From a virus (taxonomy: Duplodnaviria; Heunggongvirae; Uroviricota; Caudoviricetes): DNA of 32,915 nt. The stretch is taken from IMG/VR virus record IMGVR_UViG_2526164631_000025, positions 1-32,915 of that record; one strand, 5' to 3'. Position numbers and translations under genes: made by a program. The notes under the pieces are model-generated. The model had not been told where the DNA came from. It saw only the letters and a list, made by a program, of their open reading frames with translations, and searched no databases. Every line of letters begins with the position of its first letter. Positions within the stretch are counted from its first letter, which is position 1. This document shows, piece by piece, positions 8,782-32,915 of this stretch.

Positions 8782-9529
8782 TGGTTGTCTCCACAAAATT
8801 CAATGCTGCATGCTCCTGTTTAATTCCCATACGCTCTAATGCGATACGAAAAATTTCTGGATCTTTTTCTATTCCTGTAAATCGGCGCCCTGATTGTTGG
8901 CACGCAACGCCAGTAGTTCCGCTACCCATAGTGAAATCCAACACTGTGTCGCCAATATTGCTATATGTCTCAATCAGATATCTCACCAGAGCCAGTGGCT
9001 TTTGTGTTGAATGAAGTGCCTGCTTTTGCTTGTCGCTGGAGAATTTCTGCACGTCTCTCGGATAGCGACTTGTTGAATCGTAAACGACCTTTTTCAGCGC
9101 ATCGCCATATACATCAGTATTCAGCCTACCTCTTGTTGAGGTTTTTCTGGCGTGCCCATACGTCATCTGTGGGTTGTATGTCGGTTGCTTTCTGTAAAAA
9201 ACTTCAATATTTTCATGCGCTCTTAAAGGTTGTTTTTTTGCGTTCAAAAATCCTGTCGCGTGTGGCTTTTCCCAAATCCATTCTGTTTTCCAGTCACGAA
9301 GATTGCTGTTGACCAGCACGCTGGTAAAAGGCTGAGCGGAAAACAGAACAATTGCAGCGTTCGGTTTGGAAATACGGTAAATCTGCTTCCACATCAACTG
9401 CAGGTCGAGAACAGAATCCCAGCGACACCGAGTTGTTCCATATGGAATATCGGCACATACAAGATCTACGGAGTTGCTGGCGATTTGCGGAAAGATGTCA
9501 AAGCAATCTGCGTTGTGAAGGCAAATCAT
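8768..9529 (-). CDS. orphan DNA methyltransferase, beta-class N6-adenine/N4-cytosine type
   Basis: Motif IV-like DIPYG near the N-terminus and motif I DFTMGSGTTGVA near the C-terminus (beta-class order); no adjacent restriction endonuclease. Confidence 0.8.
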   Translation of the reverse strand: MICLHNADCFDIFPQIASNSVDLVCADIPYGTTRCRWDSVLDLQLMWKQIYRISKPNAAIVLFSAQPFTSVLVNSNLRDWKTEWIWEKPHATGFLNAKKQPLRAHENIEVFYRKQPTYNPQMTYGHARKTSTRGRLNTDVYGDALKKVVYDSTSRYPRDVQKFSSDKQKQALHSTQKPLALVRYLIETYSNIGDTVLDFTMGSGTTGVACQQSGRRFTGIEKDPEIFRIALERMGIKQEHAALNFVETTSERN

Positions 9530-9718
9530 TCACCCACCCCACTCATCACAATATACTTCGACAGGCGTTTTCCCTGCTTCATAGCCATCTCGCCATGCTT
9601 CTGCATCATAAAAGCTTCCGCCGCGCCCAGAACTGTAACCATTGCCGTTATGGCAATGGAATGAGACGTTATTACCCACAGTTTCACGCAAGCACATCAT
9701 GTAAAAGCGGTTATTCAC
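9530..9718 (-). CDS. hypothetical small protein (62 aa)
   Basis: Tightly packed in the operon; no motif. Confidence 0.4.
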   Translation of the reverse strand: MNNRFYMMCLRETVGNNVSFHCHNGNGYSSGRGGSFYDAEAWRDGYEAGKTPVEVYCDEWGG

Positions 9719-10004
9719 TAGTTACCTCCGCTTCCCACGTTTTCAGACTTTCACCACAGAACGGGCAAAATGAAACTCGAATAGGCGATTTAGAAAATTC
9801 ACCAGACCGCAGCATGATCAGGTCTTGTGAATGAATTAATTCATGGTTATAGATTTTGTATTTCAGCAGACCTTTTCGCGTCGTGTATTCAGCATCCTGC
9901 TCCAGAGATTGTGCCAGCGCCGCGCACGGTTCTATTTTTCTGTCATTAATCAAACAAGTGGAGATTCTGCACTTTGCAGCTCCGTCACCGTTACCTTGAC
10001 TCAT
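9711..10004 (-). CDS. hypothetical protein (97 aa) with C-terminal CPFCG zinc-ribbon-like motif
   Basis: ORF in operon context; Cys pairs. Confidence 0.45.
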   Translation of the reverse strand: MSQGNGDGAAKCRISTCLINDRKIEPCAALAQSLEQDAEYTTRKGLLKYKIYNHELIHSQDLIMLRSGEFSKSPIRVSFCPFCGESLKTWEAEVTSE

Positions 10005-10017
10005 TGTGTTGTTCCCA

Positions 10018-11013
10018 TCAGTTATTGAACGTGATCACTCCGCGCTCGATGGCGAAGTCGAAAAGCTGGTTAGCGGCTACGTAAAGGCGTATGCCATGTG
10101 CTTTTTCCCATGCCCGGACATCGTTTTCTGCGCTTCTGGCGCAGTCATCGCAAAGAGGAACAGCCCAGCGGTCGTGTTCGTTTAACGAGCGGGCGCGGTA
10201 CATGAATGGGTGATTAACCTTGCCGCCGCAGCCTACACACGGGCGAGACACCACAAACCGGAGATAAGCCGGGCTTTTTCCGAGTAAGGTTTTTGGACGG
10301 CGCATATATAGGAGGCCAGAATCTTCATCGACGGACAGATTGACGATCTGCTCTGCGGAAATATCCACCAGCTCGCGGGTACTATGCTCCCAGGTAATAT
10401 CCGACTCTTTCAGAGTGCCGGTAGGGATTTCAGTTTTTGGCTGACAAAATGCAATGCGACCAGCTTCATCAGGCAGTTCGTCTTTAAGATTCCGGCGAAT
10501 GGCCCAAAAGGTGAGTTCAACCATGCTCAGATCGCGATCTGGCGGAAGTTTTAACTCGCTGGCAGCCCAGTTCATAATCCAGTTGGCGCGATTCAGTGAC
10601 AGTTGGTCTTCCAGCTTGCCGTATCCCTTCATCATGTATTCCGCATCATGCTTCCAGCACAGGCGAACGGCAGAACCGTTATAGAAATGGGTGGTTAGCT
10701 GGTGGCTGCAATCGCGCTTATCATGCGCCTGGCAATCGTGAATGTTGGTGCTAACCCAGTGAACGAGAGAATCCTCACCACCTAACGCGTTAAATACACG
10801 CTCACTTTGAAAAAAGGGTGCCAGTGACTGGTTGGCAACCAGTGAATAATTCAGGTCAACGACACCATCAGGGGTGTTTTCAGCCTGTTCACGCGGCAAT
10901 GGGGATATAAGAAAACGGCGTCCTGCGCCGATGTAATTGCTGGTGGGCTTATCTACAGGAAAGACAGCCACACCAGTTTCATTTACGACATATGGGGTGA
11001 TTATTGCACTCAT
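10018..11013 (-). CDS. hypothetical protein (331 aa) with C-terminal Cys cluster
   Basis: CVGCGG...H...PLCDDCAR motif near the C-terminus; preceded by an intergenic region carrying the GTTAGAAAACTAAAATCAATG motif. Confidence 0.55.
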   Translation of the reverse strand: MSAIITPYVVNETGVAVFPVDKPTSNYIGAGRRFLISPLPREQAENTPDGVVDLNYSLVANQSLAPFFQSERVFNALGGEDSLVHWVSTNIHDCQAHDKRDCSHQLTTHFYNGSAVRLCWKHDAEYMMKGYGKLEDQLSLNRANWIMNWAASELKLPPDRDLSMVELTFWAIRRNLKDELPDEAGRIAFCQPKTEIPTGTLKESDITWEHSTRELVDISAEQIVNLSVDEDSGLLYMRRPKTLLGKSPAYLRFVVSRPCVGCGGKVNHPFMYRARSLNEHDRWAVPLCDDCARSAENDVRAWEKAHGIRLYVAANQLFDFAIERGVITFNN

Positions 11014-11111
11014 AATGCATACCGACTCTGTTTTGTTCCGAGCGGTAAAATAATATGTTAGAAAACTAAAATCAATGTTCTAACGCAATTTTGAGTGCGT
11101 AAATGATTTGA

Positions 11112-11804
11112 TCAGACTTTAAGCTGCCCTCCCTTCACCTGCATTAGCGTCAGATTTCCGCAAAAAACCGCGCCCGTGTCTATGTAGTGCTGATTCCAGT
11201 ATGCTTTTGGTCTTCGTACCGATGTGTGCCCAAAGATAAAGCGATCTGCGCCTGTGATTTCTCCACCAATGCCATCTATCGAATCACCGACGCGACTGCG
11301 CGACCAGACAACATCAAAAAGCGACACATCCTTACCGAACTGGTACTCTCCACCTGGATAGTCGGCATGGGCTATAACGATAGTTTCATGCCCGGTGTTC
11401 AACTCAATGATATATGGCAGACGCTTTACCAGCTCCACCAGCGCCTTGGCTAATATTTCCTGATCAGTGTCCAGCATGAAGAACCATTGTCCGCCATTCA
11501 TTAGCCAGTTATTCACGTTGCCATCAGGACTTAACGCATCAAGCATCAACCGCTCATGGTTCCCCATTACTGCCCTGAACCAGGGCATCTGCAATAGTTC
11601 CAGACATTCGACATTTTCAGTACCGCGATCGATAAGGTCGCCAACCGATATCAGTAAATCCTGCGCCGGGTCAAAATCCACACGATGGAGTTCGGACATC
11701 AGTCTGGTGTAGCAACCATGCAGATCACCAACAACCCATATGTTTCTATAGCCAGAACCATCAATACGGCTATATAAATTCACTTCATGCAGAGCCTGGG
11801 TCAT
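11112..11804 (-). CDS. Ser/Thr protein phosphatase (lambda PPase / PrpA-like metallophosphoesterase)
   Basis: GDLHGC, GDLIDRG and GNHE metallophosphatase motifs. Confidence 0.85.
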
Positions 11805-16256: not shown

Positions 16257-16373
16257 GTCCTCCAAACAGTTATCAGGAATGATATTAATGTTTTGTGTTA
16301 GAAAATCAATTTTGAATATCTAATCATTTTGATCAATCATAGAAAAATCGCTGAAAAGTAAGAGGCAGCCATC

Positions 16374-16951
16374 ATGCAGAAACAGAGCTATTGGGAGAAA
16401 CAGAGACAAAAAGCCATGCAAAAATTGGCTGACCCAGCCTGGCGAGAGGAACAAAGGGCAAAGCGCCTTCAACAAGCTCAACGCCAGCAGCAGCGAGCGA
16501 GAGAAAAAGCCGCATCGCCTGAATATCGGCAAAAGAAAATTGAAAAAGCAAAGCAATATGAACAGCGGAGAAAAGATAAAGCTGTATCCGCTCCGTCCAA
16601 AAAACACGCACGTCACGCGGCCTGAAAGGCAGATCACTCACAGCCGATGAACGCCGGATACAGACCGCTATCGGTGCTCTCCCCTGCATTGCCTGCCATA
16701 TTCACGGGCAACATAGCCCAGTGGTATCCCTGCACCATATCTTCGGGAGAACGGCAGAGAACGCACATAGATATGTCCTCCCTTTGTGTAAATGGCACCA
16801 CCAGTACGCAGCGCCAGCCGAGGTCCGAGAACAATATCCCTGGCTGGTCCCTGTTCATGCTGACGGAAAAATAGGCGGAAAAGCAGATTTCATGCGGCAC
16901 AATGCCGATGAAATGACGTTGTATCAGATGGCGATTGAATTGATAAATTAG
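16374..16951 (+). pseudogene. HNH endonuclease, apparently split by a 1-nt frameshift in an A6 run (16599-16604)
   Basis: Frame 1 (16374-16625) encodes a basic K/R/Q-rich 83-aa peptide; the next frame is open from 16580 with no canonical start and encodes CIAC...HHIFGRTAENAHRYVLPLCKWHH (complete HNH signature); one extra A would fuse them. Confidence 0.5.
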
Positions 16952-17196
16952 TTTTCTAACATTTTAAGTTGAATTGTAAATTTCTCCGATGTACATTCAC
17001 TACCGATTGGCACACCGGTCAACTTTTTGAGACAAACTGTTTAGTTTTTCGTATTATTGCCGCCGCTATACCTATGGCGGTGCAATATAGGTGGCTGAAA
17101 AGCCCCCGTTGACTCACGGTGTTCCAGCCTTTATTGCGCCGCCACCAGACCGTGGAACAGTCGATGGCGGCTCCGAAAGCAAGGAGTCACCACACT

Positions 17197-17450: not shown

Positions 17451-17499
17451 AATACTGACTGTTGCGCCCTGGCATTATCGTGGGGTATATTTCTACGGC

Positions 17500-17740
17500 A
17501 CCTTAGAAAAACGGGTGCCGGGATTGGAACCCCGGATAATGCAAAAGGCGACACAGACGCCGAAAGCGTCTTTTTTTGTGTCATGCCATCGCACAGCCAT
17601 ACGTAGCGTTTAGCTCAGAGATCAATGGTAGTGCTGGCTGGGCTGCCGAAAGGCAGGCCGGTTCCCTTTTGCGCCGGTAGTTCCAACCCAGTCAGTGCTA
17701 CCGCCATTGAGATTGGAACCTCACGCGGTAGCTCCTTAAA
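17500..17740 (+). ncRNA. putative c4-type antisense RNA / structured leader upstream of icd-like gene
   Basis: ORF-free stretch with hairpins, an internal terminator, GATTGGAACC repeats at 17521-17530 and 17711-17720 and complementary GGTTCC/GTTCCAA between them; sits directly upstream of icd-like and antirepressor-like genes as in P1 immI. Confidence 0.3.
17556..17577 (+). terminator. rho-independent terminator
   Basis: GACGC-CGAAA-GCGTC hairpin followed by T7. Confidence 0.55.
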
Positions 17741-25918: not shown

Positions 25919-26063
25919 CACAGATTCCTTCTCACTGAAAGTATAGTAGTCCCAATATGGGACAATGTAAAGCACTTTAGTCCCATGCTGGGATATGAAT
26001 TGAAATCACAATCTCCAGACAATGCACCCTCGATACCTGATAAATCGACCTTTGAGGATGCTT

Positions 26064-27622: not shown

Positions 27623-28603
27623 GTGGCCCAGGAGTTACAACAATATTTTCTACAGTCAGTGCTCATTAACGATAACAAAGTGCCTCGAGACTGGATTTTT
27701 ACCGCAGTATATGTAGAAAAAACCAGCCTCAAAGCCCCTTTGCTAAAACTGGAAATTCATGACGCTACCGGCACCGTAATTGATGACTGGAAAGCCAAAT
27801 ACGGTGCATCGCTGGTGGCTGAAATGGGCGATCCAAACGGTAATGCAGGCACTTTTAAAACAGATTTCTTTGTTACGTCTGCAATGCTGGCTGGTGATGT
27901 TGTTACCGTTATTGCTGTCAGTGAAGACGTGCGCAGGTTTAAGATCCCCTCCCCGCGCACAAATTTACATACCAACAAAACACCAGACGCTATATTCAAG
28001 GCATATTCCGGCAAGCTTAAAATTACCAGCAGCGTGCTAAAACGCGCAGTTACATATCATCTGAATGCCGGTGACAAACCGTCAAAAATGCTTTCGGAGA
28101 TAGCGCGAGACAAAGGTGCATTATGTTGGGTATGCCGGGGGGAATTTAACTTTTACACCCTGGCTGATCTGATGAAGCAAACGCCATCATTTACCTACGA
28201 GGGGAATAACCCTAAAGCAGAATACACTTTGTCCAAAATGCGCCTACTCCAACAGGAACATGCGACAACAGCAAAGAATCAATATCGTTTTGTTGGGTAT
28301 TCCATGACCGATGGCTACGTCGAATATGGCGATAGCTCACTCCCAGTGCGTTATATATCCGACTCTGATATGGAAACTCTTCGCAATATGCAGCTGTCTC
28401 TCGTCCCCAAAATGGATATAGAAGTCGCAGGCAATCCTGATATAAAACCGGGGATGGTAATAGAGATTATCGTATACCGCTATGACCAGGAAAACCGCAT
28501 TGATGAATCAATGCCCCGTAAGCTGATAGTAAAAAATGTTGCGCACTTTGAGGACCGCGTAGGCTACACAACACGAATGATATTAGGAGTGCCGAACAAA
28601 TGA
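27623..28603 (+). CDS. hypothetical protein (326 aa), possibly baseplate-hub-like
   Basis: GTG start 3 nt after the upstream stop; size and position before the spike-like gene suggest, but do not establish, a hub role. Confidence 0.5.
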   Translation: MAQELQQYFLQSVLINDNKVPRDWIFTAVYVEKTSLKAPLLKLEIHDATGTVIDDWKAKYGASLVAEMGDPNGNAGTFKTDFFVTSAMLAGDVVTVIAVSEDVRRFKIPSPRTNLHTNKTPDAIFKAYSGKLKITSSVLKRAVTYHLNAGDKPSKMLSEIARDKGALCWVCRGEFNFYTLADLMKQTPSFTYEGNNPKAEYTLSKMRLLQQEHATTAKNQYRFVGYSMTDGYVEYGDSSLPVRYISDSDMETLRNMQLSLVPKMDIEVAGNPDIKPGMVIEIIVYRYDQENRIDESMPRKLIVKNVAHFEDRVGYTTRMILGVPNK

Positions 28604-29253
28604 AGCGTAGAGCGCAAATTGTTGGAACTGTGCACCCGGCAGGGCTTATGCGTGCTCAAGTCCGTGTTTTACCTGACTGGAATGGCGTTCCTGATGACGA
28701 TCTACCCTGGGCGGAATACCTGTTACCCATCGGAAACGCTTTTGTACCCACAGTCAAAGGTGACCTGGTCTGGGTAGAGTTTCCTTATTTAGATGTTAAC
28801 GGTCGAATAGACACCAGACGCCCAATGATAGTTGGTGCCGCTCAGGATGCACCGGGAGGAATTCCAAACGTTGCACCAGAAGCATCTGGCAAAGGCAACG
28901 GCTGGACGCCGCCGGAAGTAGATGGAGCACCTCCCCGCCCCCAAATCTCAGCAACGAAAGACTTCGTTATTCACCGCAACAATATTCTTGAAGTACGAAC
29001 TGCTGGTGGCGGCTATGAAATTGCCAATACGGCAGCAGGCTCAAGGATTGGCATGAATGAGTCCGGGCAGATATATATCATTGGTCCGGCTGATGTAATC
29101 GTGAATGCAGGAGGGAGTGTTAACGTCAAATCAGCCAACAACATCAATGTTAATGGGGAAAATATTGCTGTCACCGCTAACGGGGACATAGCTTTCAAGG
29201 CAGGGGGAACCTTTCAGGCCACTGCTGGCAACTTCGATTTCAAGAAAGGATAG
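28600..29253 (+). CDS. gpV/gp5-type OB-fold baseplate spike-like protein (217 aa)
   Basis: N-terminal pattern G.V...G...V.V...DWNG...LPWAEYLLP.G...VP.VGDLVWVEF resembles the P2 gpV OB domain; C-terminal Gly/Asn/Val-rich repeats suggest a beta-helix. Confidence 0.5.
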   Translation: MKRRAQIVGTVHPAGLMRAQVRVLPDWNGVPDDDLPWAEYLLPIGNAFVPTVKGDLVWVEFPYLDVNGRIDTRRPMIVGAAQDAPGGIPNVAPEASGKGNGWTPPEVDGAPPRPQISATKDFVIHRNNILEVRTAGGGYEIANTAAGSRIGMNESGQIYIIGPADVIVNAGGSVNVKSANNINVNGENIAVTANGDIAFKAGGTFQATAGNFDFKKG

Positions 29254-29262
29254 AAAATGCAC

Positions 29263-29306
29263 CCATTTGTGTTAGATAATTAACGCGTATTTTCTAACAC
29301 AAATGG
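29263..29306. promoter_or_regulatory. perfect 14-bp inverted repeat overlapping the rdgC-like RBS
   Basis: CCATTTGTGTTAGA (29263-29276) and TCTAACACAAATGG (29293-29306) separated by a 16-bp AT-rich spacer; the right arm abuts the SD/ATG of the 29313 gene. Confidence 0.6.
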
Positions 29307-29312
29307 TGAGAA

Positions 29313-30218
29313 ATGAGATCAGTCGCTTTCAAAAATATCTTCATCTATCGTCTTTCACGCGAAGTTAGCTGGGATACTGCAGAAGTAAATGCAGCCCTTA
29401 GCAAGTTTGTGTTTACCCCATGCGGTTCTCAGGATATGGCTAAAGCTGGTTGGACCTCCGTTCTTGGTGACAACCTCACACATGAATACCAGGGTTTTCT
29501 GCTAATACAGCATAAGCGAGAAGAAAAAATTCTCCCCTCGCAGGTGCTCAAGGAAGAGTTGCAGAAAAAAGTCCTGAAACTCGAAGAAGAGCAAGCCCGC
29601 AAGCTGAAGAAAACGGAAAGAGACAGTCTTAAAGATGAAGTCCTGCATTCACTTTTGCCTCGCGCGTTCACGAGAAAATCACTTGCCAAAATCCTGATCG
29701 ACCGCAGCAACCATCTGGTATTCGTTGAGGCAAGCAGCGCCAAAAAGGCAGGGGACCAGCTGGCTTTATTGCGAAAATCGCTCGGCAGCCTGCCTGTCAT
29801 TCCATTCACACCACGCGAACCGCTGGAAATTACAATGACCGAGTGGTTTAAAAGCGGCTTCCCTGCCGGATTTACAGCAGGTGAAGACGCCACATTAAAG
29901 GGTCTGCTCGATAATGGTGGTGCCGTTCGCTGCAACAAAGTTGATCTACAGTCCGACGAGATTATGTCTCACATTGAGGCGGGGAAAGTAGCTACGACCG
30001 TTGCAATTAACTGGATGGAACGCGCGTCGTTCAGAGTCAACGATGATATGAGTATCAAAGCCCTGACATTCTGTGATGATCTCTATGACCAGAATGACGA
30101 TATCGACCGGGAGGATGTAGCACAACGATTTGATGCTGATTTCGTGCTCTTTACGGGCGAATTATCTGCACTGTTTAACGCGCTGGTGGAGGCCATTGGC
30201 GGTGAAGCAGAACGTTAA
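29313..30218 (+). CDS. rdgC: RdgC-like recombination-associated protein
   Basis: 301 aa with [42 protein letters not shown] and [15 protein letters not shown] blocks matching E. coli RdgC as recalled. Confidence 0.85.
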
Positions 30219-32358
30219 CCTTCGATATGGTTCAGTTTGCAGTGGAATTGAAGCCGCGAGCATTGCCTGGGAACCGTTGGGTATGCGTCCGGCGTGGTTT
30301 GCTGAAATTGAGCCTTTTCCATCTGCCGTTCTTGCGCACCGCTGGCCTCATATCGCCAACCTTGGCGATATGACAAAACTTGCCAAAAAAGTCCTGGCTG
30401 GGGAAATCGAATCCCCTGATGTGCTCGTCGGGGGAACACCTTGTCAGGCATTCAGTATCGCGGGATTACGTGGTGGGCTTGATGATGAGCGCGGCGCGCT
30501 AACTTTGAAGTATGTGGAGCTTGCAAATGCAATTGACGACAAACGGTCTGAGTCCTTCCTCAAACCGACAGTTATCGTCTGGGAAAATGTCCCAGGAGTC
30601 CTGTCATCGGCAGATAACGCCTTCGGATGTTTCCTTGCCGGATTGGCTGGAGAAGATGCACCATTTGAACCAGGTGATCGACCTGAATCAGGAAAAAGTA
30701 ACGCGTTCTGGCGGTGGGATGGCAAAACCGGTTGCCATGCTCCAAAGTGGCCGCAGTGTGGTTGTATTTATGGACCGCAGCGAAAGGTGGCCTGGAGAAT
30801 ACTTGATGCCCAATACTTCGGAGTGGCACAACGACGCCGACGCGTGTTTGTTGTCGCAAGTGCTCGAACAGACCTCGATCCCGCAACGGTACTTTTTGAG
30901 TTCGAAGGCGTGCGCCGGGATATTGCGCCGAGCAGAGGCGAGGGGAAGGAAGTTGCCGGAAATGTTGGAAATGGCATTAAAAGCGGGAGCCATTGGGATA
31001 ACCCTGTAAATCCTCACCCGACACTTGCCCGATCGCACAATACCGGCGGGACGGGTGCAAGCAACCAGGAGATTTTTTCACAGCGCGGAAGTGGGCTTGT
31101 CGGTGCTTACCGGATGGTAGCATTTGGTGAGTATGCGGATGATGAGGCGGCTTCCACGGTCAAGGCCAGAGATTTTAAGGATGCAACCGACCTGGCTGTT
31201 TTTGACAGTGCGAACGTCGGAGTGGCAGTACGTCGCTTAACGCCTGTCGAGTGCGAACGCCTGCAGGGCTTTCCTGACGGGCACACGTTGATCCCTACGG
31301 AAAAGCGTAAAAAAGTTTCTTCAGATGAACTGGCATACCTTCGCAATCACTATCCAGATTTAAGCGAAGAAGAGGCCGCGATGCTTGCAGCTGACGGACC
31401 GCGTTACAAAGCGATCGGCAACAGCATGGCAGTTCCTGTTATGCAATGGATAGGGTGTCGCATTCTTGCGACCGTAGCGGATAAACAGCAAAAAACAATA
31501 AATACCATTACCTACACAAGAAAACTCCGGACTCCGGATGAATATGAACGCCCAATATTCAAATGGGTAGGCGGTAAATTCTCAGAGTTGCCTACAGTGC
31601 TTGAGCATCTACCACACGGCAAGCGGTTAATAGAACCATTCGTTGGTGGCGGTTCCGTATTTACGAATGCAGGATTTCGCCACAACCTGCTTAATGATAT
31701 TAACGGTGACCTGATTAACTTCTATCAGACATTGCAGCGAGAGGGACATTCGCTCGTCACGCTGGCATATAGTTTTTTCAAAAATTACAACAACGCTGAC
31801 GCTTACCTCGAAGTGCGCGAGGCATTTAACAGAGGAAAGTATGACCAGCTACATCATGCTGCCGCCTTTTTGTACCTTAATCGGCACTGTTTTAATGGCG
31901 TAACGCGGTACAACCAAAATGGCGAGTTCAACGTGGGGTATGGCAAATACAAAGCGCCCTACTTCCCACATGCAGAGATGGAGGCATTTTTGGCTGATGA
32001 CGTACTCAAAAACACGTCCTTTGTATCAGGTGACTTTGCTGGCGTCATCGAGGCGGCTGGTGAAGGCGATGTGATTTTTTGCGATCCGCCGTATGAACCG
32101 CTGCCGGATACAGAAGGGTTTACCAGTTATTCAGGAAATAGCTTCCGTTTCGACGAACAGAAACGGCTGGTATCTCTATTGGTGGAAGCCCACCAGCGCG
32201 GCGCTAAGGTAGTGATAACAAATAGTGGTGCGCCAAACATCCGTGAACTATATGAACGAAACGGGTTTAAAGTACATCATATGGCAGCCAGACGGTCGGT
32301 GTCCTGCAAGGCGTCAACACGTGTAGTTGCTAACGATATAATTGCAATAATGAAGTAA
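30202..32358 (+). CDS. bifunctional DNA methyltransferase: N-terminal C5-cytosine domain fused to C-terminal Dam-like N6-adenine domain
   Basis: C5 motifs [47 protein letters not shown]; Dam-like KWVGGK and CDPPYEP; proposed GTG start at 30202 with GGAGG 9 nt upstream (the ORF track start at 30130 would overlap rdgC by 89 nt). Confidence 0.8.
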
Positions 32359-32406: not shown

Positions 32407-32915
32407 TTAACCTAACTTCGCCCAGGTATCACGCAGCCCAACGGTGCGGTTAAATACCGGTTTTTCCGCCGTAGAATGGCGGCTGTCGAGGCAGAAATAA
32501 CCTTCACGCTCAAACTGGAATGCTTTACCCGCTACCGCTTCTTTCAGCGACGGTTCAGCAAAACCCTGTTTGATCACCAGCGATTCCGGGTTAATCACCG
32601 ACAGGAAATCATCCGCAGCACCTGGGTTCGGCACGCTGAACAGACGATCGTACAGGCGGATTTCAACCGGCAGCGCATGTGCCGCGCTCACCCAGTGAAT
32701 AACGCCTTTCACTTTACGACCATCTGCCGGATCTTTGCTTAAGGTGTCGGCGTCATAAGTACAGAAGATGGTGGTGATATTGCCTTCGGCATCTTTCTCC
32801 ACGCGTTCAGCCTTAATGACGTAAGCATTACGCAGACGCACTTCTTTACCCAGCACCAGACGTTTGTACTGCTTGTTAGCTTCTTCGCGGAAATCGGCGC
32901 GATCGATCCAAATCT
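32407..32915 (-). CDS. glnS: glutaminyl-tRNA synthetase, C-terminal part (5'-partial; continues beyond the window)
   Basis: Translation ...[38 protein letters not shown]...[31 protein letters not shown] matches E. coli GlnS C-terminus as recalled; frame is open to the window edge. Confidence 0.95.

Follow-up and report, generated by a model that had tools for sequence, protein, structure and literature searches.

The C1 repressor of phage P1 binds 22 dispersed asymmetric 17-bp operators (PMC8546580). The GenBank record of P1 annotates C1 operators as Oc1a-e, Olpa, OpmgT, Odmt, Obanab, Oref, Oc4, OrepL, and Orlf. Two arrangements among these invite comparison with the locus described here: (i) Odmt (Op68) at the sigma-70 promoter Pdmt, a single (monovalent) site over the −35 that serves the operon uhr-hrdC-dmt, and (ii) Oc1ab (Op99ab) and Obanab (Op72ab), where two inverted asymmetric copies form an imperfect palindrome over a promoter, a geometry that recurs at several loci. 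In the latter, the two copies overlap by 6 bp and span 28 bp in total (ATTGCTCTAATAAATTTATTAGAGCAAT). Also comparable are the 5′ untranslated region (5′-UTR) hairpins that hide a ribosome-binding site only in a longer transcript isoform. D6-like phage-plasmids are common in Escherichia coli, Shigella, and Salmonella; to our knowledge, their immunity circuit has not been mapped as that of P1 has been, and a full-text literature search returned no paper joining D6-like elements with C1 operators.

The stretch of viral DNA analyzed here (the window; all 32,915 nucleotides of IMG/VR record IMGVR_UViG_2526164631_000025) matched the E. coli plasmid pDEC12A-1 at 100% identity and phage D6 at 97%, and is that of a D6-like, P1-related phage-plasmid. 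D6 and the window share the same gene order: the tail/baseplate genes 7-24-6-5, a 59-bp gap that holds an inverted repeat, hrdC/rdgC, a dmt-type methyltransferase gene, and, on the other strand, a copy of glnS. The rdgC open reading frame (ORF) encodes a full-length RdgC-family protein of 301 amino acids; because the Pfam RdgC alignment begins at residue 6, the ATG at 29313 is credible as its start codon. The dmt-like gene overlaps the end of rdgC and therefore probably belongs to the same operon. This operon is homologous to that of P1, with an RdgC-family gene followed by a Dam/Dcm methyltransferase gene, yet the P1 operon carries the extra gene uhr and has a separate location, whereas the rdgC operon directly follows the tail-gene block, 59 bp past its stop codon.

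Several features of the operon's surroundings were also observed. A mosaic joint was found at the rdgC/dmt boundary (window positions 30218-30226), where similarity to D6 ends with rdgC and similarity to P1 dmt (96%) starts 8 bp on. Dcm and Dam form one fused ORF in the window (coordinates in Table 1), compared with two separate methylase genes in D6. Of glnS (glutaminyl-tRNA synthetase), the window holds the 3′ part (32407-32915, minus strand); the gene is full-length in D6 (orf62) and in pDEC12A-1.

The gap upstream of rdgC contains a perfect 14-bp inverted repeat, as a preliminary description of the window had noted. Its left arm (CCATTTGTGTTAGA, 29263-29276) and right arm (TCTAACACAAATGG, 29293-29306) flank an AT-rich spacer of 16 nt (TAATTAACGCGTATTT), and the right arm is followed by TGAGAA and then by the rdgC ATG, which places its end 6 nt from the start codon, as had also been described. 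A repeat finder extended the arms to 18 nt with 94% complementarity and an 8-nt loop (CCATTTGTGTTAGATAAT and ATTTTCTAACACAAATGG), the single mismatch in the 18-bp stem being a T·T. The overlap with the rdgC ribosome-binding site that the description had claimed is marginal, as only the GG of the likely GGTGAG lies in the arm.

Two checks proposed along with that description, the folding energy of the leader and the conservation of the palindrome upstream of rdgC, both came out in its favor. Folded as RNA, the 65-nt intergenic region reached −21.3 kcal/mol, compared with −7.7 ± 2.4 kcal/mol in dinucleotide shuffles (z = −5.7; 0 of 200 shuffles). The repeat was kept in every D6-like relative examined, with coding flanks ranging from 100% to ~68% identity; the 17 distinct variants, drawn from plasmids and viral contigs, group into about four lineages, so that independent events are few. 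Identity of RdgC was 77 to 80% in the divergent lineages from Escherichia and Shigella; that of C1 in the Escherichia marmotae plasmid was 81%. The repeat at the rdgC site is more than chance; it is real, conserved, and functional looking. At ~1420-1540 of the Salmonella plasmid pSa1423-160k (L013; NZ_MK356558.1), the left arm was degenerate, the right arm was one base short, and rdgC was unannotated; because of homopolymer runs, these defects suggest assembly errors rather than true loss of the repeat.

Table 1. Coordinates of the features discussed, numbered from the first nucleotide of the window
Feature	Position	Strand	Remarks
Inverted repeat	29263..29306		Perfect 14-bp arms, 18 bp with one T·T; proposed bivalent operator and extended stem
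Probable Shine-Dalgarno sequence GGTGAG of rdgC	29305..29310	+	Read from the sequence; first 2 bases (GG) inside the right arm
rdgC/hrdC homologue, first gene of the putatively controlled operon	29313..30218	+	Pfam RdgC E = 5e-102; 52% identical to P1 HrdC
dmt-like Dcm/Dam methyltransferase gene	30202..32358	+	pDEC12A-1 annotation mapped onto the window; P1 dmt similarity
Baseplate gene (P1 gene 5 homologue), last of the tail-gene block	28600..29253	+	Possible origin of read-through transcripts with both arms
Candidate −10 GATAAT, inside the left arm	29275..29280	+	Its T is the sole mismatch of the 18-bp stem; putative −10 function
Candidate −35 TAGAAA	29251..29256	+	18-nt spacer to GATAAT; part of conserved GATAG(A/C)AAA
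Left operator half-site (putative) CGCGTTAATTATCTAACAC	29269..29287	-	PWM 18.9 bits; core 29269-29277, 1 mismatch from TTCTAACAC
Right operator half-site (putative) AACGCGTATTTTCTAACAC	29282..29300	+	PWM 15.3 bits; core 29292-29300
Single motif site upstream of ref (ATG 16374)	16295..16313	-	PWM 25.7 bits; P1 Oref at the homologous gene
Motif site upstream of the C4 RNA/icd/antirepressor block	16944..16962	+	PWM 26.3 bits; P1 counterpart Oc4
Bivalent site, N14 geometry, upstream of the pdcB-like DUF968 gene	11055..11086		Without outer-arm extension

Each arm of the repeat contains one copy of an asymmetric motif of ~17 bp, (A)ATTnnTT-TTCTAACA(C/T), whose family emerged when the arm sequence was used as a query against D6 and the closest plasmid. 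The preliminary description had already related the palindrome to a motif family through a common core, GTGTTAGA, and the relation was borne out, with three exact copies in the window against 0.64 expected. Matches to a position-weight matrix (PWM) of the motif numbered 7 in the window and 0.6 in shuffles, and 13 of the 14 motif sites in D6 were intergenic. Bases 3′ of ...ACAC were almost uninformative in the information profile of the motif. A scan of species-representative genomes for the core pattern gave no matches.

Motif sites were located directly upstream of the C1 homologue, lpa (late activator), both C4/icd/antirepressor blocks, repL, ref, a pdcB-like gene, orf52, orf117, and rdgC. 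All six of the units c1, lpa, c4-icd-ant, repL, ref, and hrdC-dmt are preceded by sites in D6-like genomes, and operators are annotated in P1 at the same units. The link of the palindrome to the GTGTTAGA family is key, and of the three options first put forward, the comparative evidence supports the operator, the others being an mRNA hairpin that sequesters the ribosome-binding site and a processing or recombination site. A stretch resembling a weak third half-site, GATAGAAAAT (29249-29258; reverse complement ATTTTCTATC), shares the orientation of the left arm and is 22 bp away from it; it also provides the candidate −35 and is kept across lineages even where it is placed after the stop codon.

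In the whole-window Rfam scan, only C4 antisense RNA (17621-17708, plus strand, 76.7 bits) and isrK (17498-17576, plus strand, 62.5 bits) scored above the gathering score. The isrK/C4 region is an immI-like block downstream of ref, with one motif copy before the block (Table 1), and a second icd/antirepressor block is present elsewhere in the closest plasmid.

Inverted pairs of cores, sought in three genomes with 10 to 19 nt allowed between them, were separated by exactly 14 nt in 11 of 12 cases, counted between the 9-bp cores; the rdgC site is among these, its gap being that of the other bivalent sites. It thus resembles Oc1ab and Obanab of P1 in consisting of two inverted asymmetric copies in an imperfect palindrome over a promoter, here a predicted one. 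The dimensions differ, as D6-type cores lie 14 nt apart for a total of 32 bp and the P1 copies overlap. The rdgC site further differs in having 5 to 7 extra complementary, co-varying pairs outside the cores, which no other bivalent site examined has.

Across the 17 variants, TGTTAGATAATT and ATTTTCTAACA were invariant, as was the spacing between them, and 7 to 8 loop bases varied freely. Also invariant was the T·T mismatch of the stem: the motif consensus predicts GAAAAT at this point, as does the right arm, but every variant has GATAAT in the left arm. A promoter scan found TAGAAA-18-GATAAT, which matches sigma-70 at 9 of 12 hexamer positions. The −35 is weak, reading TAGAAA or TAGCAA at 17 to 18 nt from the −10 in all lineages, and the surrounding GATAG(A/C)AAA is kept even where the upstream stop codon is the preceding TGA (lineages L008 and L011). 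The conserved asymmetry of GATAAT would weaken a hairpin and improve a −10 toward rdgC, which favors a promoter here; the operator, and not a −10 function, might instead account for the conservation of GATAAT. Because GATAAT lies inside the left arm, the operon's own transcript is predicted to start in the loop, without the left arm. A start ~7 nt past the −10, near 29287 (range 29285-29290), would give a 26-nt leader, which is predicted to fold weakly (−4.8 kcal/mol).

With the sequence family, genomic distribution, geometry, and conservation observed directly, the palindrome probably corresponds in the D6 lineage to Pdmt/Odmt of P1, as a bivalent operator of C1 type that covers the promoter of rdgC-dmt. 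Each arm would be one asymmetric C1 site, the two facing each other, with the left covering the −10 and the right covering ~+1 to +14. In the plasmid-prophage state, RNA polymerase would be shut out by two repressor molecules, and rdgC-dmt would stay silent; upon inactivation of C1, the promoter would fire and yield a short, unstructured leader. Like Odmt, the rdgC site is a member of a dispersed, asymmetric ~17-bp set of probable master-repressor sites and overlaps a sigma-70 promoter, predicted in the case of rdgC; unlike Odmt, it comprises two inverted sites, over the −10 and the start region. The operator for a dimeric regulator suggested in the preliminary description is supported as an operator by motif family, regulon, and geometry, but a symmetric dimer is not demonstrable, and two asymmetric half-sites of a C1-type repressor are likely.

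We infer the identity of the binding protein, along with the promoter and start site, from sequence, and the C1 assignment of D6-type sites draws on their position and regulon rather than on site homology. D6 orf1 (345 amino acids) is annotated as a C1 homologue and is 99% identical in pDEC12A-1; it aligned with P1 C1 at 21% identity over 240 amino acids (E = 2e-8), and a Pfam scan of it returned no matching model. Given this distance from P1 C1, a differing site sequence is expected. The P1 consensus ATTGCTCTAATAAATTT gave no match in the window at up to 3 mismatches, and between the P1 (ATTGCTCTAATAAATAT) and D6-type (AATTnnTTTTCTAACAC) sites the common part is limited to a TCTAA core and an AT-rich flank. 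Judged by sequence, the D6-type sites are not the P1 operators themselves but an analogue of them or, at most, distantly related. Regulation at the palindrome is unsurprising to a P1 specialist and useful for defining the D6 immunity regulon: the sister sites yield an operator consensus and a predicted C1 regulon (c1, lpa, C4/icd/ant, repL, ref, rdgC-dmt, and others) that could be used to annotate immunity types in plasmid surveys.

A relative from an independent lineage also had a paired site before its rdgC, with a different operator family. The Pantoea plasmid pPSP-26e encodes an RdgC that is 51% identical and lacks the D6 motif. It has instead a family of its own, ATTCTAAAT, with 9 dispersed copies, including between cre and the c1-like gene; the family was found by k-mer count, as direct searching with the Pantoea arm sequence gave little. 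One bivalent copy, ATTCTAAAa-N5-ATTTAGAAT, which includes a TAGAAT −10, separates the baseplate gene from rdgC and shares its geometry with another bivalent copy at 76241/76255. This dispersed family looks like the C1-type operator of the Pantoea lineage, and repressor control of the rdgC operon thus appears conserved where operator sequence is not. Control of RdgC-Dam/Dcm by the master repressor would then be common to P1, the D6 type, and the Pantoea lineage despite unrelated operators, which suggests that silencing in the prophage state matters. Separately from the ATTCTAAAT family, the Pantoea plasmid CP009882.1 (L052/L053) contained, at 76.6-78.5 kb, an iteron-like array of the palindromic TGTTTATAAACA, numbering 8 copies or more and with conserved flanks, in a region without annotated genes.

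The putative operator model alone leaves the co-varying outer bases of the arms unexplained. At the rdgC site, the stem runs 5 to 7 bp past the conserved cores, into positions that are uninformative in the motif family. Complementarity of the outer arms was 6/8 to 8/8, compared with 1/8 to 4/8 at other bivalent sites, and contiguous outer pairs numbered 3 to 9, compared with 0 to 3 at other perfect-core bivalent sites. The outer bases are specific to lineages and mirror each other in the two arms (CCATTTG/CAAATGG, CCAATTG/CAATTGG, AAAACTG/CAGTTTT, and TTCAATG/CATTGGA). A whole-intergenic MAFFT alignment gapped the right arm, and an ungapped alignment anchored on the cores was used instead; here, the covariation score was 0.266 compared with 0.085 in shuffles (0 of 500), and 90% of cells paired. 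Five outer pairs showed 3 to 4 pair types each, and sliding the pairing partner abolished the covariation signal. In the test planned as decisive, the other operators of the E. marmotae plasmid were found without that lineage's outer-arm bases; repressor specificity therefore does not reside in the outer arms.

Because the stem is longer than an operator requires and its outer bases co-vary, an added role as a hairpin in read-through transcripts may exist. Every lineage forms a hairpin, with energies from −13 to −24 kcal/mol and a stem that ends 6 to 9 nt from the AUG. It is possible, if on balance doubtful, that the full hairpin (~−20 kcal/mol) on transcripts reading through from the tail genes blocks translation of rdgC or stabilizes the 3′ end of the tail mRNA. 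Somewhat less probable still is the broader proposal that one palindrome has two jobs, acting as C1 operator and promoter in DNA and, in read-through RNA, as a co-evolving hairpin that would insulate rdgC-dmt translation from late transcription. If true, the promoter from which a message came would decide whether the recombination and methylation genes are expressed, and the extension of the stem beyond the operator cores, maintained by compensatory change across lineages, would be the signature of hairpin function. The extended co-varying stem thus offers a small, clean case for asking whether a protein-binding palindrome can also be selected as a hairpin. The locus is like the 5′-UTR isoform hairpins mentioned above in that a stable stem adjoins the Shine-Dalgarno sequence and AUG and the leader from the predicted internal promoter would lack the 5′ arm; it differs in having very little Shine-Dalgarno overlap, which is not kept in other lineages, and a stem made of putative protein-binding sites.

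A reading that we regard as similarly unlikely is that the repeat acts mainly as an RNA hairpin, by burial of the ribosome-binding site or by processing or stabilization at the end of the tail mRNA, with its resemblance to the motif secondary. The strongly non-random fold reported above suits this reading, as does the maintenance of outer-stem pairing by covariation while the loop varies freely; but the invariant part of the arms is the dispersed operator motif, which occurs mostly as single copies unable to form hairpins, and the spacing of the cores is the same as at other bivalent sites. Several plus-strand G·U wobbles are tolerated, in keeping with selection on RNA, with ~5 to 6 events against 2 for A·C mismatches, numbers too few and not significant for a choice between RNA and DNA. 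The one conserved mismatch, on the other hand, weakens the stem yet improves the −10. The constant distance of the stem end from the AUG in all lineages and the full pairing of bases 29301-29306 in the read-through model are points in its favor, to be set against the 2 paired Shine-Dalgarno nucleotides in the window and the absence of any such overlap in lineages L008, L011, and L010, as well as against the predicted-promoter transcript, which would lack the left arm. Unrelated hairpins abut the rdgC AUG at the same place in Pantoea and Citrobacter relatives (modest z = −3.3 and −2.3), whereas Rfam 15 gave only sub-threshold generic hairpin matches over the repeat (E above 3), and the stem has no U-tract. 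Of the originally proposed mRNA hairpin that sequesters the ribosome-binding site, the stable, co-varying stem was observed, but such sequestration would be limited to transcripts initiated before the left arm.

The symmetry of the outer arms could also be functionless. Correction of quasi-palindromes by template switching is well established as a source of mutation in E. coli, and switching between the arms during replication might have homogenized a quasi-palindrome that arose from a pre-existing bivalent operator. That the changes are exact mirror images in different lineages would fit, and variants with a change in a single arm (L012, L017, and L037) are possible intermediates. Other perfect-core bivalent operators, some with fully palindromic spacers, however, lack any outer extension, and neither the loop nor the T·T mismatch is homogenized in any of the 17 variants; we consider this reading unlikely, and more so than either hairpin role.

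It is highly improbable that the repeat is an intrinsic terminator of the upstream tail-gene operon. A stable hairpin does stand 10 nt past the stop codon of the last tail/baseplate gene, and the stem of the E. marmotae lineage has UUUU at its end, but those U's are themselves paired with an A-run; in the window, the AU-rich stem has 4 G-C pairs among its 14 and leads into UGAGAAAUG, without a U-tract, and a terminator scan reported nothing at the site. With such a stem and tail and the negative scan, the repeat is not a canonical (Rho-independent) terminator. Least probable of all is that the motif family and the palindrome bind a regulator other than C1, such as Lpa, a host nucleoid protein, or a site-specific recombinase: the motif is AT-rich and a few copies lie near morphogenetic genes (pmgS/pmgM area, D6 8919-11375), but the sites precede c1 and early/immunity genes and not the main structural operons, the −22 boxes of P1 late promoters (AAGTTACTT, ATGTGACTT, and AAATGACTA) differ, and the annotated cix and rox sites of D6 are located elsewhere. 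A reading of the repeat as such a −22 box was separately rejected, the boxes being dissimilar and a search with a P1-style late-promoter pattern giving one unrelated match. Nothing was found to support the processing or recombination site that had also been suggested.

Other recurrent sequences were observed in these genomes. Chi sites (GCTGGTGG) are present in 21 copies in the window (12 on the plus strand and 9 on the minus strand; e.g., 2215-2222, 29002-29009, and 30182-30189) compared with ~1 expected, and the most enriched 9-mer, CCACCAGCA, is the same in phage D6 and in the Pantoea relative. Between the higB/higA-like toxin-antitoxin genes and the gene-7-like tail gene is a pair of similar palindromes, TAGTCCCA-N3/4-TGGGA, at a distance of 31 bp from each other (25947-25962 and 25978-25993); they may be antitoxin operators or part of a tail-operon promoter.
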